From: Candidatus Micrarchaeota archaeon
GTDB lineage: Archaea; Micrarchaeota; Micrarchaeia; Norongarragalinales; UBA8480
Assembly: GCA_021812145.1 (NCBI GenBank)
Contig: JAKAOM010000001.1
Coordinates: 21,898 to 85,897, forward strand
Reading direction: 5' to 3'
Length of the DNA stretch: 64,000 nt
Below the pieces are notes generated by a model. That model did no database searches and was not told where the DNA came from. It saw only the letters and a list, made by a program, of their open reading frames with translations. The translations under genes were made by a program, and so were the position numbers. Below are positions 9,906-25,300 of the stretch, piece by piece (positions within the stretch are counted from its first letter, which is position 1; each line of letters begins with the position of its first letter).

Positions 9906-12900
9906 ATGAACTTGTTTAAGCTGCTTGTTTCGCTGGCGTTATTGTTTTCATTGGTTCAAGCTCAATGCCAGGTTAACGTGATGAATTCAAGCCAAGCTGA
10001 ACAGTTTTTAATGCTTCCAATGCTTATGCAGGCTAATCAAATCTCCTCTTCTTCAACTCCCGCGGCTTCTTCCCAGCAGGTTGTTAACGTTTTTTCTCAG
10101 AATTCAGGAGTTGTTAATTCAAGCACTGTAGCCGCTGTTTTGGGGATGACCCCGCAGCAGGTAGCCCAGCAGGCTGGCGTGCCAGTTGGTGCGGATATAA
10201 CTCTAACCCAAGCCGAGCAAATAGCCTCTACTGCTGGAAAAAGCAACTTGATTTCTCAGATTTTAGGTTTGGTTTCCAGCCAAACGCCTGTTTCACCTGC
10301 CGATGGTTTGAGCGTCACTCTGCCCAATGGTTTGAAAATGCCTTTGTCAGTTCTTAATAATTTGACTTCTATTAACTCTTCTAATTGCATGGTTAACGGA
10401 ATGTATATTAACGGTCAGGTGGAGTATCAGGGTTTGCTTACAAGCGGGGATGTTTATTACGGTTTGACTTCAAGCCCTTCAACTTCAACCGAGCAGCACC
10501 TTTCATCTTCCTCATTCACTGCAGGGGTTAATCTAGGCACTGGCGGCAGCAACATGGTTCTTCCCTACACTTATACGCGCTGGTTGATATCTTCAGGGTG
10601 GATTAATGGAGCGGATACTTTGATTAATTCTGTTGCCAGTATGGGAATGTATTCAACACTTGGGACTGCCACTCCTAAAGTAACTGCTTCAGATCTGGAG
10701 TCTTTGGCTAAGGCGAATAGCGTGCTTGAAACTACTGCAAAGTCTGCAGCGTCTGATTTGGCTTCAACATTAACTTCAATTGAAAACCCAGCTGATAAAC
10801 AAGCTTTGGATTCAATAATATATAAACTTTCAAGTGGTGCAACGCCTCTTTCTAGTGATGAACTTGCAACTCTTAATAAACTTGCAGCAAGTGATCCTGT
10901 TTTGCAGACTTCTTTATCAGATTATAATACTAAATTAAGCAGTGCGCAGCAGGTTGCCCAGCAGATGAGTGGTTCGATAAGCAAGCCCAGCACACAAGAT
11001 ATTGCCGATTACACTGCTTTAACTAAAGCCACTCTTGCAAAGGCAACATCAAGTTTTATTCTTGGCATGACTTGGCTTGGACCTGCCAGGTTCGCTTTTC
11101 AGATTAATAGCGCTTTGCTTTTTTCAAATCCTTCTAATAATGGCGATTTTTATGTTTTGCTTAAGGTTAACAGGAATACTTTAACCTCTTTGATGACGGT
11201 CAGCGATATTCTAGGTTTAGGCTATTTTGACGACACCTTATCTAAACTTTTTGGTATTGGCGTGCCCAACGCTGCCTTGACTGCTGGCGAAATGTATATC
11301 ATAAACCAGCCTTCCACCACTTCTCAAACTTCTGGATCCACCACTACTTTTAATAATAATGGTTTGGCGTGGCAGGTTCAGACTAACTGGCCTGGATCAT
11401 CCACTGTTACCAATTTTCAAAAGCTTAACCCGAGCAGTAATTTGACCACTATAGAGCTTACCACAAATTCTATCCCGCCAGGAGCGGTTATAAGCAGGCT
11501 GGATGTTTTGAAATATCAGGCTTTGGCGGTTTTGTTTGCAGTTCCATTTGTTTCTACATTGACTTTGCCTGGCGCTTTAAAGGCTGGTTTGGGCAGTACT
11601 TTCGCTGGTTTGTTGCCTGACGTGGTTATGAAAGTTATACCTTTTATTGGAATTAGCGATATTGTTTACGCTATTAACAATAATGTCTACAATAGCGTTG
11701 AACCGTGCAGTCAATCTACAATGACTGACTGGATTGTTGCTTATGGCTCTGCAACCGCTTTTTCCGACGTTTGGGCGGCAGTTCCTATTTTAAGCAGTTG
11801 GAGCAGTGTTTTTGGCAGCACTCTTAAGGGTTTTTCAACGGCTTTTACTGGATCTGGAATTTTTGGTTCCCTTGGAAGTAGCTATTTGACTTTCAGCAAG
11901 TTTCAAGGGCCTCAGTTAATGCAGATGATTGTTGGAGGTTTGGCTGCGAAGTATGCCAGCACTTGCATTGATTCCGAGTATTACGTTGCAGCGTTTCAAC
12001 CCACTCCAACTCCGAACTCGGCCGCTTTAGCTTCTGCCAACAGCGTTAACAATCTTGCCAATAATTCTGTTGTTAAGAACCTGGGTTTGGGGGGTTTGCT
12101 TCAAGGGGCGGGTCAGAATATTCAGAACGCGGCTCTAGCCAGCGAAAACACGCTGATAGTTTCCTTGACTAATCAGAATGGTTTGGTAATGCCTACGCAG
12201 CTTTACTACATCCACATGACTAACGCTGACATTCAGTGGTGGGGCAAGTTCAGCAATAAATGTTTCCATACATGCTTGTCTGATAGTGTCAGCAATATTA
12301 CTGCTTGTATCAACGGTCAGACGGGAGTGCAGGTTAAAACTCCTGCCGGGACTATCCAACTTGCAGGTTCTACAAGGGCCAAAGGGCAGCAGGAGATTGA
12401 TAAGTTTGGGTTGGATTTGATTCCCAACGCGTATATCACGACAGAGCTGACTTGCAGCGGTGTTTTCGCAACTGTTTCAAATCAGGATTTGATTTTAAGC
12501 GGCGGTTGCCCTGGAGGGGCTTGCATTCTTTCAAGCGTTAGTCAAATTGTTGGCTATCAGGTTGGGGATTTAGGCCCGGTTATGGGCAAGGTTGATACTA
12601 TTTTAACTGATAACGGAAGCATTTCATTTCCCAGCGGCTCCCCTGTCTTCAACAACGCTTCTAACGGAAGCTCAGTTTCTTTTACCACCCTTCAGATTAA
12701 CGGGAATGGAGAGGTTGTAGGAGATAACGCTAATTTAGGAACGCTTGAATCAATTAAGTTTGATAATGGAGCAATGTGGTACGATTCCAGCAACGGAGAG
12801 TTGATTATCTTCATTTACCAGCTTGCTTCAGCTTTGGCTTCTTCTTTCTCAGCCTTGAACGCTCAGGTCAGCAATTGCACTGTGGGGAATCAAACAACCC

Positions 12901-13601
12901 CCGCGATTGACTTGAGTGTTGGCGCCAATGCTGCAAACGCTCCTGCAGCTCAGCAGTTCAACACTGCCCTGAACCAGATTCAGCAGGGTTGCGGTGTGGA
13001 GCAGTGGCAAACAAATTCAACTATCTACACTCTTCACAACGTTAACGGAACTCCTACACTGACTGTAACTGACGCGCTTACAAAGACTAGCACAGACTAT
13101 CCTCTTTCAAGTCTGCAGCAGGATGGGAATAAGGTGGTTGCCACCACTGCTGATGGAAAGCAGTTTTCTTTCACTTTTGCTAACGGTCCTGCAGGACCTC
13201 AGGTTACTGTGAACACCCCTACTGGCGGCACCTCTTCTGATATTCTGACAAAGGCTACTGGTTTGGGCGGCATTCTTGCCTACGATCCTGCGACAGGCAC
13301 GTGGGAGGTTTTGAACGGGCAGGGCATTCCTATGTCTACTGGTTTCGCTGCTGGAAACACTATAACCGGAGGTGCGGGAGGCTCTGCGGTCAGCACTCCT
13401 TCCGGCGATTTACTTGGAGTAACTCCTGGCGGTTCAGCGTCCACCTTCAATGTTTTAGCAGCTCTTCCCAGCTTTGATGGGGTTTTGGTTTTTGTTTTCG
13501 CTGGAATCGCTTTCGCTTCAGGGGTTTTGATTTTCACTTTCTACTCTTCCAAACGCTCCACTTCTAAAAGTTCAGCTAAGAGGCGTCGAAGAAAGGTTTA
13601 A
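9906..13601 (+). CDS. giant secreted Ser/Thr-rich surface protein with C-terminal TM anchor and polybasic tail
   Basis: ~1230 aa from MNLFKLLVSLALLFSLVQAQC signal peptide; low-complexity S/T/N/G-rich body; C-terminus VLVFVFAGIAFASGVLIFTFYSSKRSTSKSSAKRRRRKV (TM + Arg-rich tail, sorting-signal-like). Confidence 0.6.
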   Translation: MNLFKLLVSLALLFSLVQAQCQVNVMNSSQAEQFLMLPMLMQANQISSSSTPAASSQQVVNVFSQNSGVVNSSTVAAVLGMTPQQVAQQAGVPVGADITLTQAEQIASTAGKSNLISQILGLVSSQTPVSPADGLSVTLPNGLKMPLSVLNNLTSINSSNCMVNGMYINGQVEYQGLLTSGDVYYGLTSSPSTSTEQHLSSSSFTAGVNLGTGGSNMVLPYTYTRWLISSGWINGADTLINSVASMGMYSTLGTATPKVTASDLESLAKANSVLETTAKSAASDLASTLTSIENPADKQALDSIIYKLSSGATPLSSDELATLNKLAASDPVLQTSLSDYNTKLSSAQQVAQQMSGSISKPSTQDIADYTALTKATLAKATSSFILGMTWLGPARFAFQINSALLFSNPSNNGDFYVLLKVNRNTLTSLMTVSDILGLGYFDDTLSKLFGIGVPNAALTAGEMYIINQPSTTSQTSGSTTTFNNNGLAWQVQTNWPGSSTVTNFQKLNPSSNLTTIELTTNSIPPGAVISRLDVLKYQALAVLFAVPFVSTLTLPGALKAGLGSTFAGLLPDVVMKVIPFIGISDIVYAINNNVYNSVEPCSQSTMTDWIVAYGSATAFSDVWAAVPILSSWSSVFGSTLKGFSTAFTGSGIFGSLGSSYLTFSKFQGPQLMQMIVGGLAAKYASTCIDSEYYVAAFQPTPTPNSAALASANSVNNLANNSVVKNLGLGGLLQGAGQNIQNAALASENTLIVSLTNQNGLVMPTQLYYIHMTNADIQWWGKFSNKCFHTCLSDSVSNITACINGQTGVQVKTPAGTIQLAGSTRAKGQQEIDKFGLDLIPNAYITTELTCSGVFATVSNQDLILSGGCPGGACILSSVSQIVGYQVGDLGPVMGKVDTILTDNGSISFPSGSPVFNNASNGSSVSFTTLQINGNGEVVGDNANLGTLESIKFDNGAMWYDSSNGELIIFIYQLASALASSFSALNAQVSNCTVGNQTTPAIDLSVGANAANAPAAQQFNTALNQIQQGCGVEQWQTNSTIYTLHNVNGTPTLTVTDALTKTSTDYPLSSLQQDGNKVVATTADGKQFSFTFANGPAGPQVTVNTPTGGTSSDILTKATGLGGILAYDPATGTWEVLNGQGIPMSTGFAAGNTITGGAGGSAVSTPSGDLLGVTPGGSASTFNVLAALPSFDGVLVFVFAGIAFASGVLIFTFYSSKRSTSKSSAKRRRRKV

Positions 13602-13629
13602 ATTCATTCATAATCTTAATTTTTAATTT

Positions 13630-14280
13630 ATGGACGGGTTTATGTCAAGGCTTCTTGTTTTCGGTTTTTTCGTGGTTATGGCCGGCGCTTTGGCTTCATC
13701 ACCTTCTGTTCAGCAGCAATGCCCTTCAAATCAATGGTTTTCGACTCTTTCTAACCCTCCTTCATGCCAGCCTTTAACTACAATCATTGTTTCTGATAAT
13801 CTTCCAGCTCCTGTAAACACTCAGCTTTCCACTCCTCCATCAAGCGAGGTTTCCAACGGCTATTCTTCAAATACGGCTATCGGCGGTTCTTCCACTCAGT
13901 ATGATAGTATAATACAGGACTGCGCTTCCCAGTTTAACGTGGACCCTAACCTTGTGAAGGCGGTTGTAAGGGTGGAGAGCGATTTCAACCCGAACGCGGT
14001 AAGCTCTGTTGGGGCTGAGGGTTTGATGCAGCTCATGCCTTCGACGTTTAACTCTCTTACTTCCGGCGATATTTTCGACCCTCGAACCAACGTGTGCGCT
14101 GGAACTGAATATTTGGCTCAGCAGCTTTCCACTTTCGGCGGCAACGTGGAGCTGGCTTTGGCAGCCTACAATGCTGGCCCTGGAGCGGTTATTAAATACA
14201 ACAATCAAATTCCAAATTACCCTGAAACGGTGAATTATGTAAGCAGCGTTGATTCCTACTACCACTCCTACAGCGCTTGA
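13630..14280 (+). CDS. secreted lytic transglycosylase (SLT domain, GH23-like)
   Basis: signal peptide, then LVKAVVRVESDFNPNAVSSVGAEGLMQLMPSTF…AYNAGPGAV: canonical SLT catalytic Glu-Ser block, GLMQ and AYNAG motifs. Confidence 0.7.
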   Translation: MDGFMSRLLVFGFFVVMAGALASSPSVQQQCPSNQWFSTLSNPPSCQPLTTIIVSDNLPAPVNTQLSTPPSSEVSNGYSSNTAIGGSSTQYDSIIQDCASQFNVDPNLVKAVVRVESDFNPNAVSSVGAEGLMQLMPSTFNSLTSGDIFDPRTNVCAGTEYLAQQLSTFGGNVELALAAYNAGPGAVIKYNNQIPNYPETVNYVSSVDSYYHSYSA

Positions 14281-14299
14281 ATTTCTTTTTTTTTTTAAG

Positions 14300-14373
14300 A
14301 GCCTCAGAAGGGAATTGAACCCTTGACCTCCTGTTTACAAGACAGGCGCTCTACCGACTGAGCTACTGAGGCT
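14300..14373 (-). tRNA. tRNA-Thr (anticodon TGT)
   Basis: reverse complement folds as cloverleaf: acceptor GCCTCAG/CTGAGGC, D-arm GCTC…GAGC, anticodon stem CCTGT/ACAGG with loop CTTGTAA, T-loop TTCAATT. Confidence 0.8.
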
Positions 14374-14561
14374 TTACCCTTGCTTGTTTTTTTGTTTTTA
14401 AAATGTTTTAAATCTTTGTCTTTTTTTGTTTCGCGTTTCTTTTTAAATAATTTTAATAGCTTGATTTTTGTAACTATTTTACAGTAATAAGGCAACGCTT
14501 TTATACTCGCCTTGTAATGTTTTTTAACAATTGGGTTGAATTTTAAAAAGGTGGTTTTAGA

Positions 14562-14774
14562 GTGTTAAGTGACTGCAATTATGACAAGGTTAAGCTTATT
14601 CATCATTTAAGCAAGATAGTTGGTTTTATCGACAGGCACGCTGTCGGCGACGCGGAGCGGGGAGGGCATCCTTTATGCGCTGAAGAGTACAAAGAGTTGA
14701 GGGAGGATTTGGAGAAGCATATTGGCAAGCTTAGCGCTGCTGTCAAGGGCTTGTCAAAAGAGGATAAATTTTAA
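14562..14774 (+). CDS. hypothetical small protein
   Basis: 70-aa ORF, no recognisable motif. Confidence 0.2.
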   Translation: MLSDCNYDKVKLIHHLSKIVGFIDRHAVGDAERGGHPLCAEEYKELREDLEKHIGKLSAAVKGLSKEDKF

Positions 14775-14838
14775 CCTTCTATTTTTTTCAAGCGCTTGTT
14801 GCGTTCTGTTGTTTGAAAAAGGGTTGATTCAGTATTCT

Positions 14839-15204
14839 CTAAAATAGTTTTAGTTCCTTGAATTTTTTGAAGTGTTTTGTGTTTAGAGTGTACAGCTTGG
14901 CGTTATTGTTTATTGTTATAGCTGCTATCATGCTGTCCATTCTGAGTGTCCCTTCTATTTCTGATTTTACTTCAAGTTTTGCCGATAGTTCTGCGTCTTG
15001 TTTTGTGTAGTTAAGAATAGGTATCTGGCTTATTTTCGCAGTTTGTTTGGCGTATTTTATTGCTCCGTAAATAAATTCATGCAAGTTTAGCGTTGTGGTG
15101 CAGAATTGCTCGTTGCTGGCTATGATTTTATTTAACGCTTGCTCTCCAATCTCAGAGTTTTTATCGAATATTTCTATGAGAACGTCCGTGTCTAAAACTA
15201 TCAT
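14839..15204 (-). CDS. vapC: PIN-domain toxin VapC
   Basis: MIVLDTDVLIEIF… PIN N-terminus; 4-nt overlap with upstream small gene. Confidence 0.6.
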   Translation of the reverse strand: MIVLDTDVLIEIFDKNSEIGEQALNKIIASNEQFCTTTLNLHEFIYGAIKYAKQTAKISQIPILNYTKQDAELSAKLEVKSEIEGTLRMDSMIAAITINNNAKLYTLNTKHFKKFKELKLF

Positions 15205-15410
15205 CTTTTCTCGCTTCTTTTTAGGTATATTTCTGAGAGCATTTTATCCTTGTTTTTGAATTCGACGCTGCCTCTTATTTCTTTTAATATGTCTGCTGGA
15301 TTTTTGGGTTTTATCAGTCTTTCAAAGAGGTTGCTGAAGCTTTCGTTTTTTCTTTTTACGTCCAGTAGGTCTAGGTAGACGTTTGTTTTTATTGTTATTG
15401 TTTTTGACAT
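15201..15410 (-). CDS. antitoxin (VapB-like)
   Basis: 69-aa gene overlapping the start of the PIN gene (ATGA overlap). Confidence 0.45.
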   Translation of the reverse strand: MSKTITIKTNVYLDLLDVKRKNESFSNLFERLIKPKNPADILKEIRGSVEFKNKDKMLSEIYLKRSEKR

Positions 15411-15592
15411 TTTTAAATGTATGTTTAAACATATATTTAAACATTATGTTTTGTTGGCAGTGTGATTTTATTCAATTTTATAATATTCTTGCCTAGACTT
15501 TTCATATTTTGTGTTTATTGTTGTTAAAATGCAGTGTTGTAAAACATCGTTACAGACACCTTTAAAAGCAAAGCTGATTTAAAATATGCTTT

Positions 15593-16162
15593 ATGTTCAC
15601 TATAGATTCTTTCAGGAAGTTAAAGCGCGGCCCTCAGGTTGTTTTGTTTAAGGATGCATCATTTGTCAGCTGTTTTTCTGGATTGCAAAGCGGCGACGTG
15701 GTGGTTGACGTTGGTAGCGGCAGCGGGTTTTTAGCCTCTTATCTTGGTTTTATCGTTTCTCCCGGAGGCAAGGTTTACACTTTTGAAAGGAGAGAGGAGT
15801 TTGCCAGGATTGCAAGGCAGAATTTTGAAAAGCTTGGTCTGCAGAACGTGGTTTCATTGATTGAGGGCGATGCGGTCAGGAGAAAATGGCCTGAATGTGA
15901 TTTGGTAACAATTGACGCTGGAGGAGGGGATGTTTTGCTAAAGAAGGCATTCAATGCTTTAAAGCCGGGCGGTGTCGCGGTTGGTTTTCTTCCCAACGTG
16001 GAGCAGTTGAAGGTTTTTCAGGAAAAGGGAGTTAAATTGGGTTTTAAGCCTTTCAAGAGCACTGAGGTGTTCGACAGGAACTGGCTTGTCAGGGAGCAGG
16101 GCTGCAGGCCTGAGAATACTGGTTTGATTCACAGTGTTTTCCTTTGTTTTTTAAGAAAATAG
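15593..16162 (+). CDS. trmI: tRNA (adenine57/58-N1)-methyltransferase TrmI-like
   Basis: SFVSCFSGLQSGDVVVDVGSGSGFLASYLGFIVSPGGKVYTFERREEFARIARQNFEKLGL aligns with the TrmI/Gcd14 core (DxGxGSG…G-V-ERRE-FA--A--N). Confidence 0.65.
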   Translation: MFTIDSFRKLKRGPQVVLFKDASFVSCFSGLQSGDVVVDVGSGSGFLASYLGFIVSPGGKVYTFERREEFARIARQNFEKLGLQNVVSLIEGDAVRRKWPECDLVTIDAGGGDVLLKKAFNALKPGGVAVGFLPNVEQLKVFQEKGVKLGFKPFKSTEVFDRNWLVREQGCRPENTGLIHSVFLCFLRK

Positions 16163-16166
16163 TTAA

Positions 16167-16239
16167 AGCCTCGAATGGGAATTGAACCCATGACCTCTTG
16201 CTTACCATGCAAGCGCTCTACCGGCTGAGCTATCGAGGC
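16167..16239 (-). tRNA. tRNA-Thr (anticodon GGT)
   Basis: revcomp GCCTCGATAGCTCAGCCGGTAGAGCGCTTGCATGGTAAGCAAGAGGTCATGGGTTCAATTCCCATTCGAGGC; anticodon loop ATGGTAA. Confidence 0.8.
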
Positions 16240-16388
16240 GTTTAATTTTTCAGCTTCGTTTAATTTTGTTTTTAGCTTAGTTTTTTTCTCTTAAAAAGCT
16301 TATTAAAGTTTTCTTGCGTAATTTAGGTTGAATAAACATTTTGTTTAATTCGATTTTTTAAATTTTTCAAGTAGGTGTTTTTGTTAAA

Positions 16389-16544
16389 ATGGGAAAATTT
16401 CCAATTGCCGATCATGCTTTGACTGAGATTTGGATTTGCCTTAAATGCAAGTCTAGGAACGCCAAGGGCGCAAATGTCTGCAGGAAGTGCGGCAGCAAGT
16501 ATTTAAGGCCTAAGAGAGCAAGAAAGAAAGAAACCAAAAAGTAA
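16389..16544 (+). CDS. rpl40e: 50S ribosomal protein L40e (missed by ORF track, 51 aa)
   Basis: MGKFPIADHALTEIWICLKCKSRNAKGANVCRKCGSKYLRPKRARKKETKK: C4 zinc-ribbon and RKCG…LRPK signature of L40e. Confidence 0.7.
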   Translation: MGKFPIADHALTEIWICLKCKSRNAKGANVCRKCGSKYLRPKRARKKETKK

Positions 16545-16656
16545 GAAGCCTTTTTTTTTGGCTTTTTCTTTTGTTTTTTTTCACAAAGCTTTCAAAGCAT
16601 TTAAAAATTATTGTTTTTTAATTACTTCTAGTTTTGACCTTGCTAGCCTTTTTTTT

Positions 16657-16758
16657 GCAGGGGTGGCTGAGCCTGGTCAAAAGCGCAGGTTGATTTCTGT
16701 GCGACACTTAAGATCCTGTCTCTTAGCGAGTTCGAGGGTTCAAATCCCTCCCCCTGCA
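16657..16758 (+). tRNA. tRNA-Leu (probable anticodon GAG) with ~18-nt intron at non-canonical site in anticodon loop
   Basis: type-II tRNA: acceptor GCAGGGG/CCCCTGC+A, Leu-type D-loop GAGCCTGGTCAAA, long variable arm CTCTTAGCGAGTTC, T-arm GAGGG-TTCAAAT-CCCTC. 25 nt lie between anticodon stem halves GCAGG…CCTGT, and splicing to loop TTGAGAT gives GAG. Confidence 0.7.
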
Positions 16759-16785
16759 TTAACATTAAATTACCCCCGGATTTTT

Positions 16786-18057
16786 TTATAATAAAAGCCA
16801 CTTATACAAAGGAATAAACTTGATTTTTTTGCCGTCATACTCTTCTGTTTTTTCATAATCCCAGGTTAATATAACAAGATCATTGCAGCGCAGGTTATCT
16901 GATGCCTTTAAAATCGCTTTGACCTCCCTTTTTTTTGTTTTTTCGTTTTCAACGCTGTAAGTTACCTGAATCAGTTGTTTGATTTTAATTCCTTCTTTTA
17001 TTACAAAATCAACTTCTGCGGTTGAGTCTTTCCAGTAAAAAACTTTAAACTTTGTAAAATCGTTGGATCTTCTCATTAATTCTATTGCCACACTGTTTTC
17101 CATTAACCTTCTCTGCTCAAGCATTGGTTCAAGTGCAAAAGCATCTATTATCCCATTGTCTATGACGTAAAGCTTTTTTGGCGATTTGATTTGCTCTTTT
17201 GCTTTGAATGAGAATCTGTCCAGCGCGAACACCAAAAACGCCTCTTGGATATACGCCACGTATTTTTCAGCTGTGTGAACGCTGGCTAATCCTGACGCTT
17301 TCGCTACGCTGTTGTAAGAGAATTCGCTTGCAAACGCGCTTATCAAGTACCTTATGATATTGTATATTGCGTTTGAATACCTTATCCTGTGCCGTCTTAC
17401 AATGTCTTTGATGATTATGCTGTCCACGAGTGTTGTGATGTAATTGTTTCGATCTATGCTTTCATTTACAGTTATTTCAGGGTACCCTCCTTTTTTTATG
17501 TACTCGCTGGTTAAATTCAAAATCTCGCCCTGCACGCTTTTCAGCTGCGTTTTGTTTGTGTCAAATAGATAGTTTTTTGCTTTCATGAATTCGCTTAATG
17601 AAAATGTGAAGACGCTTATCTGCAGGTGCCTTCCCGTTAGGTGAGTCGCCAGTTCTGTGCTCAGTAGATTTGAGTTCGAGCCTGTTACAATAAGATTGTA
17701 TCCTTCTCTTTGAAGCCTGTTCACGAAAAGCTCCCACCTGCTGAGGTTTTGCACCTCGTCAAGCAGCAGAAGTTCAAATTTTCCATATACTTCCTTCAGG
17801 TTTTTGATATATTCTTCATAATCGCTTGTTTTTAACAGTTTTTCATCATCGAAGTTTACGTATGCGAATCTTTTATCATTGATGCTTTGAAGCGAGAAGT
17901 AAGATTTGCCGGCTCTTCTCGGCCCGATTATTACCTTTACCAAGTTGTTTTCAAGCGATTTTCCTAAAGATATTTCTCTTTTCACTGTTTTGCTTGACAG
18001 TATTTTCACTGCCTCGTCTTTTTCCTTGACTAAGACTTCCCTTATACCTTCACTCAT
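16786..18057 (-). CDS. AAA+ ATPase, DUF4143-type (AAA_14 + DUF4143 architecture)
   Basis: 423 aa; Walker A GPRRAGKS, Walker B LLLLDEVQ, C-terminal domain typical of archaeal/bacterial DUF4143 ATPases. Confidence 0.6.
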   Translation of the reverse strand: MSEGIREVLVKEKDEAVKILSSKTVKREISLGKSLENNLVKVIIGPRRAGKSYFSLQSINDKRFAYVNFDDEKLLKTSDYEEYIKNLKEVYGKFELLLLDEVQNLSRWELFVNRLQREGYNLIVTGSNSNLLSTELATHLTGRHLQISVFTFSLSEFMKAKNYLFDTNKTQLKSVQGEILNLTSEYIKKGGYPEITVNESIDRNNYITTLVDSIIIKDIVRRHRIRYSNAIYNIIRYLISAFASEFSYNSVAKASGLASVHTAEKYVAYIQEAFLVFALDRFSFKAKEQIKSPKKLYVIDNGIIDAFALEPMLEQRRLMENSVAIELMRRSNDFTKFKVFYWKDSTAEVDFVIKEGIKIKQLIQVTYSVENEKTKKREVKAILKASDNLRCNDLVILTWDYEKTEEYDGKKIKFIPLYKWLLL

Positions 18058-18157
18058 GCATTATTATTGCAACGCGAAGATTTTAATATTTTTGCATTAT
18101 AATGCACAAAAATCAAATATTTTGTGCACTGCAAAAAAACTAAATATTTTTGTAAAG

Positions 18158-18259
18158 GCAGGGGTGGCTGAGACTGGTCAAAAGCGCAGGTTGATTTCTG
18201 TGCGACACTTAAGATCCTGTCTCTTAGCGAGTTCGAGGGTTCAAATCCCTCCCCCTGCA
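18158..18259 (+). tRNA. tRNA-Leu second copy (intron-containing), 1 mismatch to 16657..16758
   Basis: 102/102 alignment with a single D-loop difference (GAGCCTGG vs GAGACTGG). Confidence 0.65.
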
Positions 18260-18338
18260 TTTACGCCTTTTTTTGTGAATGAAAATCGTTAAAAATGCCT
18301 TTGATTTTAATAATTGCTTAAATTCAAGTTTTTAGTGA

Positions 18339-19481
18339 TTGCCTGGAATGAAGTTTTCTTTTGGTTTTAGACATTTTTTGCAGTTGGCTTCGTTTGGACT
18401 GCAGAAGTTTTACGATTTAAAGAATAAGTTGGGTTTTAATCATTCTGTTTTCAAAAGAGTAGTTGTTTTTTCAAATATAGAAATTGGAAATTTTATTGTA
18501 AACCTTCCTGTCTTGGAGTCGGTCTGCGCTAAATCTCAAGAAACTCTGATTATTGCGCCATCTTATATGCGCGAGTTTTCTCCTGACAAAGCTTCTGTTA
18601 TAACAATCCCAAACGGCTTAGGCGATAAATTAAGGCTTTTGTTTAAAATTATTTTTTTCAACCCCGATCACCTGATTCTCTTTGAAGCTAATTCTTTAGG
18701 GGTGGCTTCTTCAATTCCCTTGATTTTTTCAAGCGATAGAATTGATTTTGATTCGATTTTTCTTAAGGAAATGTGGTTTAATGGAAAAATTAAGCCAGTT
18801 CATCTCACTGAATACAATTTGAATGCGATTATCCAATTTGGTTTTAATTCAGTTAATCCTGTTCCAGAGGTTAAAGTTGGAAGGGAAGATTTTCTGAAGG
18901 CTGAAAAAATCCTCGCTTCTTTTGGTGTGAAGGGACGTTTTTTTGTTTTGTTTCCAGGTTCTTCTGACGAGAAGACGCGCTGGAGAGTTGAGAATTTTGC
19001 AAAGACCGGCGATTCTTTGGCGCGCAAGTTTAGCTGGACTCCGGTTATAGTTCAAGGTCCTGATGATGCCGCTTCAGCCTCGTTGGTTGCGGGTCTTATG
19101 AAATTCAAGCCAGTTATACTTCCACTGATTCCTTTAAACATTTTGGCCGGCGTTTTCAAAAAGGCTGGTTTTTACATAGGTATGGACACAGGCCCTGCTC
19201 ATTTGGCTGCGGCTGTTGGCTGTCCAACAGTTTCTGTCTTTACCAGAGGCTGCCCTTACTGGTATTATCCTTACACTTGGAAGGGCGCTGCAGTTTACGT
19301 AAAAGCGTATGTAAGCGAGAACAGCCGCAGGGTAAACAGCGAAGCGCTCAGAGGAGCTCCAGCGTCTTTTGACGTTATCACCCCTTCCTGTGTTGTCAAG
19401 GCGGTGGCGAGGGCGGTTTCAGGCAGAAAGAAAGCGGGAAGAGTTCCCTTCAATGGCTTTGAGTGCAATTCAAAACAGTGA
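18339..19481 (+). CDS. GT9-family glycosyltransferase (heptosyltransferase-like)
   Basis: N-terminal KRVVVFSNIEIGNFIVNLPVLES and C-terminal GMDTGPAHLAAAVGCPTVSVFT (GT9 D-S/T-G-xxH-LAAA-G-P-xV-LFG block); paralog of 40570..41703. Confidence 0.6.
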   Translation: MPGMKFSFGFRHFLQLASFGLQKFYDLKNKLGFNHSVFKRVVVFSNIEIGNFIVNLPVLESVCAKSQETLIIAPSYMREFSPDKASVITIPNGLGDKLRLLFKIIFFNPDHLILFEANSLGVASSIPLIFSSDRIDFDSIFLKEMWFNGKIKPVHLTEYNLNAIIQFGFNSVNPVPEVKVGREDFLKAEKILASFGVKGRFFVLFPGSSDEKTRWRVENFAKTGDSLARKFSWTPVIVQGPDDAASASLVAGLMKFKPVILPLIPLNILAGVFKKAGFYIGMDTGPAHLAAAVGCPTVSVFTRGCPYWYYPYTWKGAAVYVKAYVSENSRRVNSEALRGAPASFDVITPSCVVKAVARAVSGRKKAGRVPFNGFECNSKQ

Positions 19482-19529
19482 CTGCTTGAATATTCAGCTT
19501 ATTTTTTTGCAGAAGGTTTAAATAGTTTA

Positions 19530-19545
19530 ATGAATATATATTCAT
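19530..19545. promoter_or_regulatory. 16-nt perfect palindrome ATGAATATATATTCAT upstream of DUF5320 gene
   Basis: perfect inverted repeat ~40 nt upstream of start codon, next to TATA-like tttaaata. Confidence 0.35.
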
Positions 19546-19585
19546 AATTATTTTAGGGTTTTGAATTAAGGGGTGAATTAAAAAA

Positions 19586-19822
19586 ATGCCATGCAAAGAT
19601 GGAACAGGTCCTCTTGGACAAGGGCCTATGACGGGCAGAGGTTTCGGGCGTTGCGGGCGAGGCATGCGCAGGAGCGCGGGCTACTGCAGGGGCTTTGGTT
19701 ATGGAGCTGCTTCGCTCACTCAAGAAGAAAGAGAAAAACTTCTTGAAGCGGAGCTTGAAGACTTGGAAGCCGAAAAAAAGGCTGTCGAGTCACAGCTTGA
19801 AAGATTGAAAGCGAAAAACTAA
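19586..19822 (+). CDS. DUF5320-family small protein (Gly/Arg-rich N-term, coiled-coil C-term)
   Basis: MPCKDGTGPLGQGPMTGRGFGRCGRG… then EEREKLLEAELEDLEAEKKAVESQLERLK. Confidence 0.55.
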   Translation: MPCKDGTGPLGQGPMTGRGFGRCGRGMRRSAGYCRGFGYGAASLTQEEREKLLEAELEDLEAEKKAVESQLERLKAKN

Positions 19823-19860
19823 AAGTGAAGCTTTCAGGAAAAACGCTGAGAGGTAAATCA

Positions 19861-19903
19861 AGGCTTTAAAAATAAGCCTTGAACCTCACTTTTTTTTATT
19901 TTT
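19861..19903 (+). terminator. hairpin AGGCTT-n8-AAGCCT followed by T-tract
   Basis: inverted repeat aggctttaaaaataagcct then cacttttttttattttt downstream of DUF5320 stop. Confidence 0.35.
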
Positions 19904-19905
19904 AA

Positions 19906-19921
19906 TTCAATAATTATTGAA
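19906..19921. promoter_or_regulatory. 16-nt perfect palindrome TTCAATAATTATTGAA upstream of DUF134 gene
   Basis: perfect inverted repeat ~45 nt upstream of the MPRPR start. Confidence 0.35.
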
Positions 19922-19968
19922 TATTTTTGATAAAAAACGTTTTAAACATTAAAAGACAAGATTCACCT

Positions 19969-20313
19969 ATGCCTAGGCCGAGATTGTGCAGGAGGGTCGC
20001 CTTCCAACCGGAGGTTAACTATTTCAAACCGGCAGGGGTTAGAATAGGCTATCTTGAAGAGTCCACTCTAACTGTTGAAGAGTTTGAGGCGGTAAGACTC
20101 AAAGACTTGGATGGTTTTGAACAGAATGATTGCGCTAAGAAGATGCGCGTTTCACAACCTACTTTTCACAGGGTTTTGCTTTCAGCAAGAAGAAAGATTG
20201 CTGACGCCTTAGTTAACGGCAAGGGCCTGCGCATAGAAGGCGGAAATTTCAAGATTTACGGCAAAGGTTTTTCAAGAAGGGGTAGTGGTTTTGGAAGGAA
20301 TGGCTTATGCTAA
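19969..20313 (+). CDS. DUF134 (UPF0251) predicted DNA-binding protein
   Basis: MPRPRLCRRVAFQPEVNYFKPAGV…LTVEEFEAVRLKDLDGFEQNDCAKKMRVSQPTFHRVLLSARRKIADALVNGKGLRIEGG matches the conserved DUF134 core. Confidence 0.65.
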   Translation: MPRPRLCRRVAFQPEVNYFKPAGVRIGYLEESTLTVEEFEAVRLKDLDGFEQNDCAKKMRVSQPTFHRVLLSARRKIADALVNGKGLRIEGGNFKIYGKGFSRRGSGFGRNGLC

Positions 20314-20380
20314 CCTGCCTTTCTTTTGGCTAAGCTTGCTTCTGGCTTTTACCTTTAAGATTTTTGAAGTGGTTTGAATT

Positions 20381-20929
20381 TTGAAGAAGACTCGCAGTGG
20401 TTTTAAAAAGATTTGGGATTTGAAAATCTCCAGTTTGGTTAACGCGAGCTTTGACAAGTTTGAGAGCGAGTTGAAAGAGCATGGAAAGTTGATGAAGTGG
20501 ACTTTGAAGCATGTTTTGCTTCCCGTAGCCGTTCTGTATTTGATTGTGGGCTTGATTATACAGAAGAGGGTGGTTGACTCGCTTTTCATTGGCTTTCTGC
20601 TTTTTATTTACAGCGGTTTCGTCCCTGACTTGGACTCGCTCATGGTTGTAAAAAAAGATTTGAAGAGAGAGGGTTGGGTGGAAAAAATTGCTCTTTTGTT
20701 TTTAGGCCCTTTGCTGGTTTATTATTTGATTTCCGGCGAGTCAAAGCCGATCTACGTTAAAAAAGCAAAGGAGTTTCACAGCGTTGCTTATCTAGCCGCG
20801 TACTGCACTTTTCTTTTGGCTGTAGGCTTGATTTTTTACGGGAATGCGCTTGAAACTTTGTCCCTTCCCTTATTCGGAGGTTTGGGCTACGCCACGCATC
20901 TTTTCATGGACGGGTATTTGAAGTTTTAG
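20381..20929 (+). CDS. DUF457-like membrane-bound metal-dependent hydrolase family protein
   Basis: VPDLD, HSVAYLA, GYATHLFMDG motifs on polytopic membrane protein. Confidence 0.4.
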   Translation: MKKTRSGFKKIWDLKISSLVNASFDKFESELKEHGKLMKWTLKHVLLPVAVLYLIVGLIIQKRVVDSLFIGFLLFIYSGFVPDLDSLMVVKKDLKREGWVEKIALLFLGPLLVYYLISGESKPIYVKKAKEFHSVAYLAAYCTFLLAVGLIFYGNALETLSLPLFGGLGYATHLFMDGYLKF

Positions 20930-20966
20930 CATTTTAGTACGCAAGGTTTTTTAAGGATTCATTGAG

Positions 20967-21488
20967 TTGTTTTTCTATATGGTTGATTTGATTTCTCATG
21001 CGTTGTGGGCTTTCGCTTTTTTCCACAATTTGTCCAACGCGTGGCTTTACGTTCTTTTCACTCTTCTTCCCGATTTGCTGTGGGGCGTTCCATCCTTTGC
21101 CTTTCTTATTTCAACAGGAAGATTAGGAGAGTTGAGAAAAGCCAGATGGAGGAGAAGTCAAAATAAGGATGGCGTTAAAGACTTTAGGTCTGATTTGGGC
21201 GGCAAGTTGTATCATTTATCGCATTCTTGGATTGCTATGGGTTTTGTTGGAGCGTTGCTTTTCATTTTCATCCCTTCCATAGCTCTTCCCTTTATAGGCG
21301 GGGTTTTTCTTCACTTGGCTTTTGACCTTTTTCTTCACAAGGACAGTGTTTTCGGTCAAATGCCTTTATACCCCCTGTCGTCTTTTCGGGTGGAAGGCTT
21401 CATTCACTGGAGCGACAGGCGTTTAATTATCCTGAATTACGCTCTTTTGACTCTAGCGTATTTCATAATCATCGCAGGTCGCCTTTGA
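20967..21488 (+). CDS. DUF457-like membrane-bound metal-dependent hydrolase family protein
   Basis: SHALWAF, LLPDLLWG, YHLSHSW, LHLAFDLFLHKD, PLYPLS (YdjM-type motif set). Confidence 0.45.
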   Translation: MFFYMVDLISHALWAFAFFHNLSNAWLYVLFTLLPDLLWGVPSFAFLISTGRLGELRKARWRRSQNKDGVKDFRSDLGGKLYHLSHSWIAMGFVGALLFIFIPSIALPFIGGVFLHLAFDLFLHKDSVFGQMPLYPLSSFRVEGFIHWSDRRLIILNYALLTLAYFIIIAGRL

Positions 21489-21543
21489 TATTTTTCAAAA
21501 ACAAAAATGAATTTTGGGCTAGTCAAAAACTTTAAAAATCAAC

Positions 21544-22278
21544 ATGTTGAACGTATTAATTGTGGCAAGCAAAACTTTTATACTTGGCATCTTAGCAGTT
21601 CTGGTAATTATCGCGGTCGTATATTTTTATTCTCAAAATTCAAGTCAATCCGTTCAGCCGGTAACACCTGTAAAAAGCGCTTCAACCACTGAAGTTTTAT
21701 TGAATAATACAAACTCCAACTTAACAATTTATGATAATCAGACTATTTTATTGAATTATGCTGTAACCCCTCCAGAATTAAATACTATCCTGTATGTAGA
21801 CGGAACGGTTGAAGGAGGTAATTTCAACACTACGAATCTGCAAGATGGGTTTTATAACATAACCGCTATAACATACAGTTCGGATAATTACACCGGCTCG
21901 AGTGATACTCAATATTTAACTATACTACCTGCAAACGCTATAAACACTCAAAACCATTATCTAAACTTGAGCGTTGGTGAAGCAGGACAAGTTGAGCTAC
22001 CTGTTAATCCTTCCACTGGAACTTCCTGGTGGGTTCAATCAGCGCCTTCTAATATCGAAGTAAATTCTTCAAGTTCTGTAAACACAAGCATTACCTGCCC
22101 TTCTGGAATTGCTGGTTGCAGTAATCAATTAACTGTTTACTCTTTTATGTCAAACGAGTCTGGAAATTATACTGTTGAATTGCGCTTAGGCCATGCTTGG
22201 GCGCATGAAGAGTATTATGAAGTTGACTTGGTTTATTTGACTGTGCAAAACTCGTCAATAGCAAACCAATCTGGCTAA
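21544..22278 (+). CDS. membrane-anchored chagasin-family (I42) cysteine-peptidase inhibitor-like protein
   Basis: N-terminal TM anchor; LSVGEAGQVELPVNPSTGTSWW…GNYTVELRL matches the I42 fold signature NPTTG-x-W and the strand around it. Confidence 0.5.
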   Translation: MLNVLIVASKTFILGILAVLVIIAVVYFYSQNSSQSVQPVTPVKSASTTEVLLNNTNSNLTIYDNQTILLNYAVTPPELNTILYVDGTVEGGNFNTTNLQDGFYNITAITYSSDNYTGSSDTQYLTILPANAINTQNHYLNLSVGEAGQVELPVNPSTGTSWWVQSAPSNIEVNSSSSVNTSITCPSGIAGCSNQLTVYSFMSNESGNYTVELRLGHAWAHEEYYEVDLVYLTVQNSSIANQSG

Positions 22279-22311
22279 ACTTCAATTAAAATCAGGGAAG
22301 AATAATCAAAT

Positions 22312-25300
22312 CTAGCTCAAGCCCTTGCTGGTGGTTGCTTCTCTCAAAAGGTTTTGAGTAACCCACTCCTGCCATTCTTGAAGAAGGGTTTTGTAGTCTA
22401 TCCCTCCATGCTCTTCTCTTTGCTTTTCCTGCATTAGTAGGTATTTTGAGTGCGCTCTTATGCTGTAGTTTGCCTCCAAGATTTGAGGCACGTTATTTTT
22501 TCTTTTCAAATCAACCAGAAACTGCTTTGTAGCCGCTCTCGCGCTTATTTCGTTCCATATGTCTTCGTAGCTTAACCCTCTGTTTCTCATCACCTTGGCA
22601 ATCCACTCGCTTTGCTTTATTTTTTCTTGGTATAGTTCAAGCCCGTCTATGTTAGCGTTGAAGTTCTCCCAGTTTAGGAACCCGTCTTCCTTCAACGGGT
22701 CAACGTTCCATTCTTTTTTAACTTCTGTTATTTCAATTATCCTTCTCTGCCTTTTCAAGGACCCTTTGAATCTTATAGGCGCTCCCACGATTGCGAAGTC
22801 CGTTGCTTTGAACGAGGTTGTAGGCACTCCCAAATCATTAACCACCCTATCCCATATAGAGTACGCGCTTTCCCCGTGGATGGTTCCCATGACCACGTTT
22901 CCCACAGCTCCGACTCTCATGGCTTCATACAATGCTCTTGCTTCTGTGTTGTGAAGCAGGATCCCTCCAAAACCACCTATGAAATTCTGGCATGGGCTTA
23001 CTGATAGGTCGTAAACCGGTTCGGGTTTTTTAAGATTGATTTCTTTGATTGAAACGATCTCGTCCAGGTAAAAATCCCCGTTTGCGAATGTTTTCATTTC
23101 TTCCGAGCACTCGCACTCTGGATCTGAAATTACTTTTTTAAGATAATTCTTGCTGCACCTTCCAAACCTGAATAAGTGTCTGTATCTGCGAGGATATTTT
23201 TTCAGGTGTTCTTTAAGGCTTTCTTTTTCAAAGTATACTGTGTTGGTTTTGTTGTGCGCCCATGCCTTTATCAGAGGGGTTGGTTTTTTTTGGACAAACC
23301 CTATCTCGTTAAGGAACGTTTTAACTGCTTCGCGCTCCTTGAACTCAACAATCCACAACTCGTTTGATTTTTCATTTTGATGTTTTCTTGAATAAACGCG
23401 CGCAACGATTCCGAAAACCAACAAAAGATAGGAAACATCCTCTGCCAGCTTTTTGGATGTCGAATAATATCTCACACTGTTTCCCGAGTTTTTAGAAGCG
23501 GTGAATGAGCCATCGCCACTGTAGAGTGCACGCAGGAAATTAGCTATCTTTTTCTTTGAAAGACCGTAAATCATTGAAGGGATTCTTTTTTCAGTGCAGG
23601 TTCTACCACCTCCTAACTTTTCAATAAGCCTTGCAAGCGGCGAGCTTGAAAGCCTGAGTTGAATCGACCTGCCAGCTCCATGCACCTCTCTTTCGGATGG
23701 CTGTATTCCAAAAAGGGATTGTGAGACGAATTTCATGTCGCTTAGTAACACTTCATTTGAATTAGTCAGAACCACGTTTCCTCCTTTTCCTTTTTTCAAA
23801 TCATAGTATCCTTCGGAAACGTAATAACCTAAAAAGCGGCAGAACTCTTCATTCACTTGAATAACTGCAGGAATGCTCGTGCTAGTTCCTGTTTTTACTT
23901 TCAGCTTTTTCTCATCAAAAGCTGTTTCTGTTTTCTCCATAAGTTTTTTGAACGATTCTATTGGAATGTTTACCTGCTGGCTTGAAGAGGTCCTGAAATA
24001 ATTGTATATATCTCCTGAAGTTACCTCTGCGATTAGCGTTGCTTCCCTCCACCCTATTTTTGATATAGCGGTTCTCACAGGGCTTTCGAAGTTTTCAACC
24101 CTTAACTCAGGAAGTATTTTCATTAAGTGAATTTCAGTTAAATCGTTGAAACCGCACGGGATTCTTGAAGGTATTACTATCTGGTCTCCTTCGCAAAGCT
24201 TTTCACATTCGATCGCAGCGATTTTAAAATCTCTTGTAGCAGTGAACAGACTGTGGTCAGGAGTTACGGTTACTTTTCTTCCTGTTTTTGTGGTTATTTC
24301 AATCATTCTCTTCCTTTCAGGGTGCTTCACAAAACCAGAGAGCGGCTTGAGCGTTGTTTTAAGGTCAAACTCAATGGCAGGAACTTGAATACTACTCGTA
24401 TTTTTTCCTTCAATATCTTTGATTTGAATTCTTTTTGTAACACCATTCTCTATTATAAAAACCTCTTCATTACCCCTGATAGAGCTTCTAACTTCTCCAA
24501 CCACCAAAACAGAATCTCCTAATCTTAAAGCAGTTCTGAGCGCGTCTTCAGCTGAAACTTCAGCCTCGCTTTGAGCTCCTAAAGGCGGCCTTGTTTTAAG
24601 TCTTTCAATGTTGAAGGCAAGATTTTTCAATTGAGGGACAGGAAGCTCCTGAGTGTCTTCTTGCACAATAATCCTTAAATTTTGAGGGATTTCCTGCATT
24701 AAAGCTTGAAGAAGGGATGTTTTTCCAGCACCTCTGCTTCCCACTATAAGCATGGAAGCTTGAGCGTCCACAAAGAATGAGAGTATTCCCGCTGTTATTG
24801 GGTTGAACATTTTAAAATCAAGAAATTGCGGAAGCGTCCAAGGAGTTTCCTTGTGCAGCCTTAACGCGAAGGCGGTTCCATCTAACGCCAACGGCTTTCC
24901 TATCACCGCCACTCTTGTCTGCAGGTCCGGCAGGTCGAAGTCAAGAATGGGGTGGGCTTCGTCGAACGGCCTTCCGCTTAAAGCTCTGAATCTTGACACC
25001 AACGCTTTAGCCTCCTCCTCGCTGAATATGACGTTTGTTTGGCACTGCCCGTATTTTGAGTGGACCAGATAGACTGGCTTTATTCCCAACGGAGAGTCAA
25101 TATAAACGTCTGTAAGCTGCCTGTCGTTAAGTATTATTTCCAGAATTCCGTAACCTATAGTATATCTTGCGACTATTGTTGCCAATTCTTCTTTTTCCTC
25201 CATTGAAAGACTTATCTTGTTTCTGACCGCTATATCCGATATCGTATTAATGTATATTTTGGAAAAGTATTTTCTCGCCTGATCCATGTCCATAAAACCA

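Follow-up and report, generated by a model that had tools for sequence, protein, structure and literature searches.

A 64,000-nucleotide (nt) stretch of the genome of a Candidatus Micrarchaeota archaeon (GenBank assembly GCA_021812145.1, contig JAKAOM010000001.1, positions 21,898 to 85,897 of the forward strand), referred to here as the window, carries a 1.5-kb islet in which one ATPase gene is bracketed by two full-length, directly repeated copies of an intron-containing tRNA-Leu gene. Comparison with relatives indicates that the islet is a derived insertion. Its anatomy leads us to propose, tentatively and at somewhat under an even chance, that it arose by a Campbell-type single crossover between a circular DNA, carrying tRNA-Leu and the ATPase gene, and the chromosomal tRNA-Leu. 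Contigs and loci compared with the window are designated by L-numbers.

A tRNA-Leu gene is duplicated in full around a single ATPase gene

The two tRNA-Leu copies lie on the same strand (+), at 16657-16758 (copy 1) and 18158-18259 (copy 2), and by our own alignment are identical at 101 of 102 positions, including the intron. The sole mismatch is at position 16 in the D-loop, where copy 1 has a C (16672) and copy 2 an A (18173). A repeat search of the window delimits a direct repeat of 107 nt that is 98% identical (16657-16763 and 18158-18264), with a period of 1501 bp. Identity between the copies runs from tRNA position 1 through two nt (TT) beyond the 3' end, i.e. over 104 nt, and the 60 nt outside each repeat, on both sides, are unrelated to each other as assessed by alignment. 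When the flanks of the islet gene are matched without gaps they score 101, versus at most 11 for shuffled flanks. The only open reading frame (ORF) of substance between the copies is on the opposite strand (16786-18057, -), encodes 423 amino acids (aa) and is identified by Pfam as an AAA_14 + DUF4143 protein and by PADLOC as PDC-S01. Its stop codon lies 27 nt from copy 1 and its start 100 nt from copy 2, and these 100 nt (18058-18157, -) are thus both the region 5' of the ATPase start and the 5' flank of copy 2. A third copy of tRNA-Leu, full or partial, which might have marked a larger element, is not present in the 64-kb window. These results bear out a first-pass annotation of this DNA, made from the letters alone, which had described near-identical direct tRNA-Leu repeats with unrelated flanks, a duplication of the whole tRNA rather than of part of it, and an AAA_14/DUF4143 ATPase as the sole gene in between. 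We also considered base composition as a sign of foreign origin and rejected it; the GC content of the insert (0.34-0.41) is not distinct from that of neighbouring 400-nt windows (0.29-0.51).

The tRNA-Leu duplication around the ATPase gene is real and no accident of one assembly. The same tRNA-ATPase-tRNA layout is found in a 336-kb MEGAHIT contig (L001) and in a second strain (L039), which is 99.0% identical over 6.5 kb. In addition, a Logan contig from SRR13206618 matches window 16731-18203 exactly and stops at the repeat edge on one side and at the D-loop difference on the other, the points at which branching is forced in a k=31 graph. In L039, copy 2 has a C at D-loop position 16 and is 100% identical to copy 1 of the window over the 104 nt.

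Relatives of the locus hold a single tRNA-Leu gene and no ATPase gene

The gene order upstream of the islet is shared with relatives and consists of SLT, tRNA-Thr(UGU), a 70-aa gene, a GCD14-type methyltransferase (~77% identical to those of L003 and L004), tRNA-Thr(GGU), an L40e-like gene and tRNA-Leu. The L40e-like gene (16389-16544, +), a 51-aa zinc-ribbon ORF with weak zinc-ribbon Pfam matches and a name that we read from its sequence, precedes tRNA-Leu in every relative, as seen in L003, L004, L010 and L016. Copy 2 is followed by a glycosyltransferase family 9 gene (GT9; 18348-19481, +; Pfam and gene call), the called gene starting three codons inside a 380-aa ORF, and then by DUF5320, DUF134, two membrane proteins, inhibitor_I42, an intein-containing T2SSE ATPase and a large glycosyltransferase cluster. 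Besides the near-identical strain, homologs of GT9 are only 51-53% identical.

A scan with the pattern of the tRNA found the same tRNA at one locus in a GTDB metagenome-assembled genome (L003, Candidatus Micrarchaeota) and one JGI metagenome locus (L004), with no match in IMG/VR contigs. Three relatives, at ~50-78% protein identity, have retained this gene neighbourhood; each has a single tRNA-Leu and lacks the ATPase gene. L016 has tRNA-Thr(GGU), L40e, one intron-containing tRNA-Leu (533-632) and GT9 (813-1916), which is the arrangement of the window minus the 1501-bp unit. L010/L011 is collinear with window 12045-26100, contains one tRNA-Leu and lacks the DUF4143 gene, and its downstream genes are the same set as in the window in shuffled order. 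The one tRNA-Leu of L004 is followed by 11.5 kb without an ATPase gene, and L003 has L40e and then a single tRNA-Leu, at which the contig ends. Because L016, L010/L011 and L004 hold a single tRNA-Leu and no ATPase gene, the insertion is, on this comparison, derived from an ancestor that would have had L40e, one tRNA-Leu and the GT9 block. L016 and L010/L011 show the empty site, i.e. one tRNA-Leu and no ATPase gene, for which the first-pass annotation had proposed to look.

The differences between tRNA copies are informative about what followed the duplication. D-loop position 16 is a C in all relatives, as in copy 1, and the A at 18173 is private to this strain; since the relatives, copy 1 and copy 2 of L039 all have C, this A arose after the duplication. 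The 5' part of the intron (TTGATTTC) is common to both window copies and different in every relative, which argues either that the duplication is young or that the copies have been homogenised by gene conversion.

A single crossover within tRNA-Leu as a tentative origin of the islet

In the proposed mechanism, the starting chromosome would have carried L40e, one tRNA-Leu(UAA) and the GT9 block, and the incoming circle a copy of tRNA-Leu together with a self-contained PDC-S01 gene that has its own upstream palindrome and promoter region. The minimum circle would measure 1501 bp (tRNA, 27 nt, ATPase gene and 100 nt), or a larger element may have been trimmed later. One reciprocal crossover within tRNA-Leu would insert the circle and duplicate the whole shared segment in direct orientation; the homologous recombination machinery of the host could have carried it out, or an integrase supplied in trans whose products resemble those of homologous recombination. 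Because a single crossover duplicates the entire shared segment, an intact tRNA would remain on each side and no function would be lost, and the repeat would end where the tRNA ends because, in this proposal, the tRNA is the only sequence common to both partners. We infer the circular intermediate, the crossover, the enzyme and the expression of both tRNA copies from the anatomy of the islet.

Recombination over segments of this length has been described in archaea. Archaeal attachment (att) sites can exceed 100 bp, e.g. 102 and 243 bp, and some of these are in Thermococcales elements (PMC8371274). Int-pTN3 recombines homologous segments down to 104 bp, and tRNA-Leu genes are found at the borders of Thermococcus inversions (PMC5495485). 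The islet resembles Campbell-type and Int-pTN3 events in that the shared segment is duplicated directly, and its 104-bp repeat is in the same size class. However, the Int-pTN3 events are inversions in pTN3-carrying Thermococcales, whereas for the present Micrarchaeota lineage neither a plasmid of this kind nor an integrase or a circular donor is known.

Closer to the window, two contigs of metagenome Ga0078972 suggest that such exchanges have occurred. In L004 (3043-3143), synteny after L40e-tRNA-Leu(UAA) is lost exactly at the tRNA 3' end, and on another contig GT9 is preceded by a tRNA-Leu(CAG) that lacks an intron and matches the window/UAA tRNA perfectly over its 3' 41 nt (L012 7604-7690). 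This looks like a rearrangement via recombination between two tRNA-Leu isoacceptor genes, and such loci suggest that tRNA-Leu genes of this clade undergo recombination. In L010, and likewise in L011, the 3' end of the intein-containing T2SSE gene is present as a 145-nt direct duplicate with three mismatches (8797-8941 and 10021-10165), with a gene for a 271-aa membrane protein between the two copies; at the same place L012 carries a homolog of this gene, 89% identical, and no duplicate. We count this as a similar event nearby and in favour of a single crossover.

Several points weigh against this proposal. No circular form, donor element or recombinase was seen. The gap between L40e and tRNA measures 112 nt in the window (16545-16656, +), a T-rich spacer with a hairpin followed by a T-run that is terminator-like (GAAGCC-T9-GGCTTTTT), versus 4-15 nt in five relatives, and the left junction is therefore no clean ancestral flank. 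The donor tRNA must have had the same intron, which implies a very close donor with nevertheless different flanks, or later conversion. The relatives are distant (GT9 51-53%, methyltransferase ~77%), which puts the order of events beyond reach. Finally, the loci of the closest ATPase homolog (P0002, 57% identity) have no flanking repeats.

tRNA-Leu is a classical archaeal integration target, and the islet could alternatively be the remnant of an integrase-mediated element, plasmid or provirus, whose attachment site (attP) was a complete tRNA-Leu and from which everything except the defence gene was later deleted. We regard this as unlikely, though it merits serious consideration. The empty site in relatives is as expected for such an element, and archaeal att sites measuring 102 and 243 bp have been reported (PMC8371274). 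The only match in a phage database is to the 3' 44 nt of the tRNA, at the end of Archaeoglobus profundus pleomorphic provirus 1, and on two Campylobacterota plasmids (L029 312-1217 and L030 2831-3967) a distant ATPase homolog adjoins a tyrosine recombinase gene. Nevertheless, the absence of an integrase noted in the first-pass annotation holds within ~10 kb and beyond, as no recombinase family, integrase or integrase fragment is present in the Pfam lists for window 6786-28057 or among 31 further window ORFs that were scanned. The islet has 27 + 100 nt of non-coding DNA only and no other element genes left, so that the deletion must have been near-perfect; known att sites are part of a tRNA rather than the whole gene with its intron (PMC8371274), and IMG/VR contigs contain no match to the tRNA pattern. 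The first-pass annotation had read the repeats as the footprint of tRNA-targeted integration. Of this, insertion at a tRNA stands and relatives indeed lack the bracketed DNA, but an integrase-type mechanism, or a tRNA-specific one for DUF4143 cassettes, is unsupported.

Direct repeats flank some other homologs of the ATPase

Another alternative is that the cassette itself drives a long duplication of its target, by widely staggered breaks that are filled in or by replication template switching, perhaps with help from the PD-(D/E)XK nuclease; the tRNA would then just happen to be the segment that was copied in this case. This possibility is tied to a survey of flanking repeats, in which the score of a gene was that of the best direct, gap-free match of one flank to the other (at most 15 with shuffled flanks). 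Controls were 91 further ORFs of 200 aa or more from the same DNA, and the index window was left out of the counts. Strong flanking repeats were found for 5/24 ATPase ORFs and 2/91 control ORFs (Fisher p 0.004), in a sample that is small, with loci not chosen blind, and in which 19 of the 24 ATPase ORFs have no repeats.

The longest of these repeats, in L025/L026, measures 129 nt with ~91% identity (2707-2835 and 4261-4389 in L025), has a period of 1554 and is reached by the end of the ORF on the right side. The repeat in L018/L019 is 26-29 nt long, more if indels are admitted, with a period of 1480, and that in L017 consists of 29 nt at both contig ends (1-29 and 1473-1501), with a period of 1472. 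L029 has an imperfect, AT-rich repeat of 47 nt beside the tyrosine recombinase gene, L035 a repeat of 25 nt, and L009 a borderline flanking repeat of 15 nt. With regard to individual loci, the ATPase homolog of L025 (35% identity) is on an IMG/VR contig; its repeats each begin with TAA and a terminator-like hairpin, and its upstream region contains AAATATAGCAGTT three times. L017, a Logan contig of 1501 bp, contains a small divergent ORF besides the ATPase homolog, and its identical ends may stem from a circular unitig, from a tandem array or from ~30-nt repeats on either side of a gene.

None of the flanking repeats of the homologs is a tRNA sequence, and a tRNA adjoins the gene at 0/24 of the other homologous ATPase loci. 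Because these repeats are all non-tRNA, tRNA targeting is no general rule for the ATPase family, and the check proposed in the first-pass annotation, whether other DUF4143 cassettes are also tRNA-flanked, comes out negative for these loci, five of which have non-tRNA repeats instead. The two repeat-flanked control genes are non-ATPases in Micrarchaeota relatives, namely the membrane-protein gene of L010 and, in L012, a gene for a 262-aa HEAT-repeat protein (15207-15995, -) inside a 39-nt direct repeat (15146-15184 and 16270-16308).

As an account of the islet, duplication driven by the cassette seems to us improbable. It is consistent with homologs that are tightly bracketed by long, mutually unrelated direct repeats of similar period, and with their excess over controls. 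Most homologs have no repeats, however, and the control genes of L010 and L012 are flanked as well, so that the feature is not specific to the ATPase. Moreover, ending within 2 nt of both tRNA ends would be a coincidence under random staggered breaks, terminal inverted repeats or conserved cassette ends were not seen, and no empty site for the L025 cassette was found in viral contigs. The survey is no more than suggestive; insertion with long duplication may be a recurrent route by which such ATPase genes are acquired. In its strongest form, PDC-S01 and the palindrome upstream of it would constitute mobile single-gene cassettes that have no linked integrase and leave direct target duplications of 25-129 bp, with the whole-tRNA duplication of the window as a recent case, which we consider distinctly unlikely. 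The same insertion-duplication route may be general for gene gain in DPANN archaea, which the 145-bp (L010) and 39-bp (L012) duplications fit.

Alternatives involving gene conversion or assembly

Two tRNA-Leu genes could have been present from early on, e.g. UAA after L40e and CAG before GT9, with the ATPase gene between them, and conversion would then have overwritten the second. L012-L015 do have an intronless tRNA-Leu(CAG), 310 nt upstream of GT9, and the CAG and window tRNAs share their 5' 30 nt (93%) and 3' 41 nt (100%), which would be enough to prime conversion and would explain why identity ends at the tRNA boundaries. We nonetheless find this scenario very doubtful, as L016 and L010/L011 hold a single tRNA-Leu between L40e and GT9, copy 2 lacks CAG-type bases (positions 12 and 23 are UAA-type) and the conversion would delete a decoding tRNA. 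In the metagenome with the CAG-GT9 arrangement, L40e-tRNA(UAA) is on another contig with unrelated downstream genes, for which an exchange of tRNA genes is the simpler explanation. The CAG gene before GT9 in L012 partly touches on the alternative, raised in the first-pass annotation, of two tRNA-Leu genes with different anticodons at this locus; such a history is conceivable, though simpler ones are available. We also asked whether the A at position 16 of copy 2 could be left over from a tRNA-Leu(CAG) and ruled this out, since the CAG gene and copy 2 of L039 have C.

An assembly artefact, in which a 1.5-kb circle existing on its own, or a different genome with the same tRNA, was joined to the chromosome at the tRNA, is hardly credible. 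A k=31 graph is the same for integrated and episomal forms, and the Logan contigs L002 and L040 therefore cannot discriminate. MEGAHIT k141 contigs from two samples, however, cross the junctions, their k of 141 exceeding the length of the 104-nt repeat. Moreover, an independent assembly connects the D-loop difference to the flank on the ATPase side, and it is not evident how a 1.5-kb circle with a single ATPase gene would replicate.

The ATPase gene is a candidate defence gene of the PDC-S01 family

The 423-aa product of the islet gene matches AAA_14 (2.5e-30) and DUF4143 (3.1e-21) in Pfam, and the PADLOC profile PDLC04787 (PDC-S01) over its full length (E 6.8e-101, residues 22-422). PDC-S01 is described as an ATPase fused to a PD-(D/E)XK domain that is enriched in archaea/DPANN and has undergone repeated inter-domain transfer (PMC12988326), and DUF4143 is listed as a PD-(D/E)XK family (PMC3424549). 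Experimental validation is still to come for most PDCs, and according to the same paper for the anti-phage activity of PDC-S01 (PMC12988326). Among 37 homologs, including this protein, residues G45, K51, S52, D100, E101, D300, D350 and Q364 show no variation, and E348 and Y367 hardly any. We read G45, K51 and S52 as a putative Walker A motif, D100 and E101 as a putative Walker B motif, and D300, E348, D350, Q364 and Y367 as a predicted RecB-like nuclease motif. A search of NCBIfam with the ATPase returned nothing, and a sequence search of the PDB found no related solved structure. The gene is intact in the second strain (L039), from which it differs by two synonymous and two non-synonymous changes, too few to show selection.

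The phylogenetic distribution of homologs is that of a gene which has moved between lineages. The closest homolog is 57% identical, with nothing between this and the ~99% of the near-identical strain, and the tier at 46-53% mixes Brocadiaceae (anammox), Nitrospirae, Nanoarchaeota, Aenigmarchaeota and Thermoplasmata. Several homologs have defence genes as neighbours: L018 lies beside type I restriction-modification genes with HicAB, L031 between HsdR and methyltransferase (type I restriction-modification), L025 next to a GmrSD restriction gene, and L009 beside toxin-antitoxin genes and AbiEii. Used as a single query, the ATPase has no match in viral contigs; an alignment of homologs used as query finds seven loci there. 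The first-pass annotation had remarked that DUF4143 genes are often multi-copy, and a count gives one in the window. At the sequence level, the cargo is a horizontally acquired, mobile candidate defence gene. It resembles PDC-S01 (AAA_14 + DUF4143, COG1373) in its full-length profile match, the presence of both domains and the defence-island contexts of its homologs, and differs in that the papers cited here on PDC-S01 mention no association with tRNA genes, flanking direct repeats or a conserved upstream palindrome. As a separate observation, the closest homolog (L005 1825-3620, also L006 and L008) is directly beside an IS200/IS605-type Y1 transposase (TnpA) and a TnpB-like gene.

A palindrome is conserved upstream of the ATPase subfamily

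The 100-nt region upstream of the ATPase gene contains a palindrome, TGCACAAAA-N8-TTTTGTGCA (18103-18128, unstranded), that is found in the equivalent regions of homologs and is conserved upstream of the ATPase subfamily as a putative operator. A second palindrome, TGCATTATAATGCA (18093-18106), overlaps the first. The pattern TGCACAAA-N8-22-GTGCA has two matches in the window (both strands), versus 0.08 expected, and is present in 7/7 independent loci with enough upstream DNA, i.e. the window, L005 (3755-3780), L009 (5796-5821), L017 (112-137), L018 (4960-4985), L041 (2445-2470) and L043 (2348-2373). The genes that carry it encode ATPases of a ~50%-identity subfamily, from archaea and one Kuenenia bacterium, and nowhere else in the 38 loci scanned does the pattern occur. 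Because it is found only upstream of ATPase genes, and across lineages, these results suggest that the gene moves with its own cis-element, the palindrome probably being an operator or protein-binding site that travels with it.

The duplicated tRNA-Leu probably has a UAA anticodon and a relaxed intron

Both copies are recognized by Rfam RF00005, with 42.8 bits for copy 1 and 42.5 bits for copy 2 (gathering threshold 29), and both have the long variable arm of class II tRNA. As assessed by alignment to the Rfam model, a 25-nt insert replaces nine positions of the anticodon loop and its closing pair in each. ARAGORN misses both tRNAs in default mode and finds them in intron mode only, as Leu(AAG) with an 18-nt intron. 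We rejected this assignment, as its fold has no nucleotide 26 and relatives do not conserve the helix AUUU/AGAU that it implies for the intron; to our knowledge, A34 is not used by archaeal tRNA-Leu. An alternative cut, GCGCAGG^...GAC^ACUUAAG (carets mark the cuts), produces a standard 86-nt tRNA with anticodon UAA in 6/6 sequences compared, in all of which the anticodon stem is CAGGA/UCCUG and the loop CUUAAGA. The anticodon is thus probably UAA rather than AAG.

With this cut, the intron would occupy 16690-16705 in copy 1 and 18191-18206 in copy 2, and the proposed exons are 16657-16689 and 16706-16758, and 18158-18190 and 18207-18259, respectively. In a manual fold, the intron has a 4-bp helix (CGCA/UGCG), the bulges GG^U and AC^A and an outer helix AAG/CUU, and the inner helix is absent; the register of the minimum-free-energy fold is 2 nt off from this. 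Among six relatives the intron keeps the same 3' part (CUGUGCGAC) but varies in its 5' part, in sequence as well as in length (14-16 nt in total). The exons are invariant among the compared sequences and hence offer no covariation. The invariant 3' part is in keeping with a relaxed hBH/BHL-type motif. Most likely the intron measures 16 nt, interrupts the tRNA at position 30/31 and has a bulge-helix-loop motif of the relaxed kind. In ARMAN-2 (Ca. Micrarchaeum), a three-unit endonuclease cleaves relaxed hBH/BHL motifs (PMC3239211). As in ARMAN-2 (PMC3239211), the intron would be short and lie outside position 37/38, with the splice sites here predicted from sequence.

Other features of the neighbourhood

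The conserved block around the islet contains PIN-domain toxin-antitoxin pairs at varying sites, in the window (14839-15410), L003 (992-1586) and L010 (4195-4836), and L004 has none. In the window the pair is between the 70-aa gene and the methyltransferase, and in L003 and L010 it is between the methyltransferase and tRNA-Thr. Judging by their positions, these pairs look like independent gains within the same few kilobases. Further downstream, the T2SSE-type secretion/pilus ATPase (22312-26100, -; 1262 aa) has an intein with a LAGLIDADG homing-endonuclease domain. L010 has a gene of this type that also contains an intein; the L012 ortholog (774 aa) has no intein match.

Discussion

tRNA genes are well-known landing sites, nearly always with an element-encoded integrase and a partial tRNA repeat. 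The islet shares a tRNA-Leu site, direct tRNA repeats and an empty site with the archaeal tRNA-targeting elements, i.e. those with SSV-, pNOB8- and pTN3-type integrases and integrated pleolipoviruses. Those elements, however, have their own integrase, many genes and a partial tRNA (the 44-nt 3' part in the Archaeoglobus provirus), whereas here the duplication takes in the whole intron-containing tRNA, only one gene has been inserted, and the ORFs scanned include no integrase. Nor does the islet look like a transposon or insertion sequence, as it has no transposase and its near-end inverted repeats are only AT-rich, 74-80%, and reach into the coding region. The length of the duplication is not fixed, with 104 nt here and 25-129 nt at other loci. 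A one-gene defence-candidate islet with a full-length tRNA duplication and no recombinase is an unusual variant of gene gain at a tRNA.

PDC-S01 is reported among the commonest candidate defence genes, with tens of thousands of loci, and is still uncharacterised. The excess of flanking repeats and the travelling palindrome are two leads on its spread and regulation. In the window, a candidate immunity gene has been captured at a tRNA, and this in one of the DPANN lineages, for which a reliance on compact single-gene defences is reported. If recombination through the tRNA is the true origin of the islet, tRNA genes could serve as portable homology anchors for the exchange of defence genes among small archaeal genomes.

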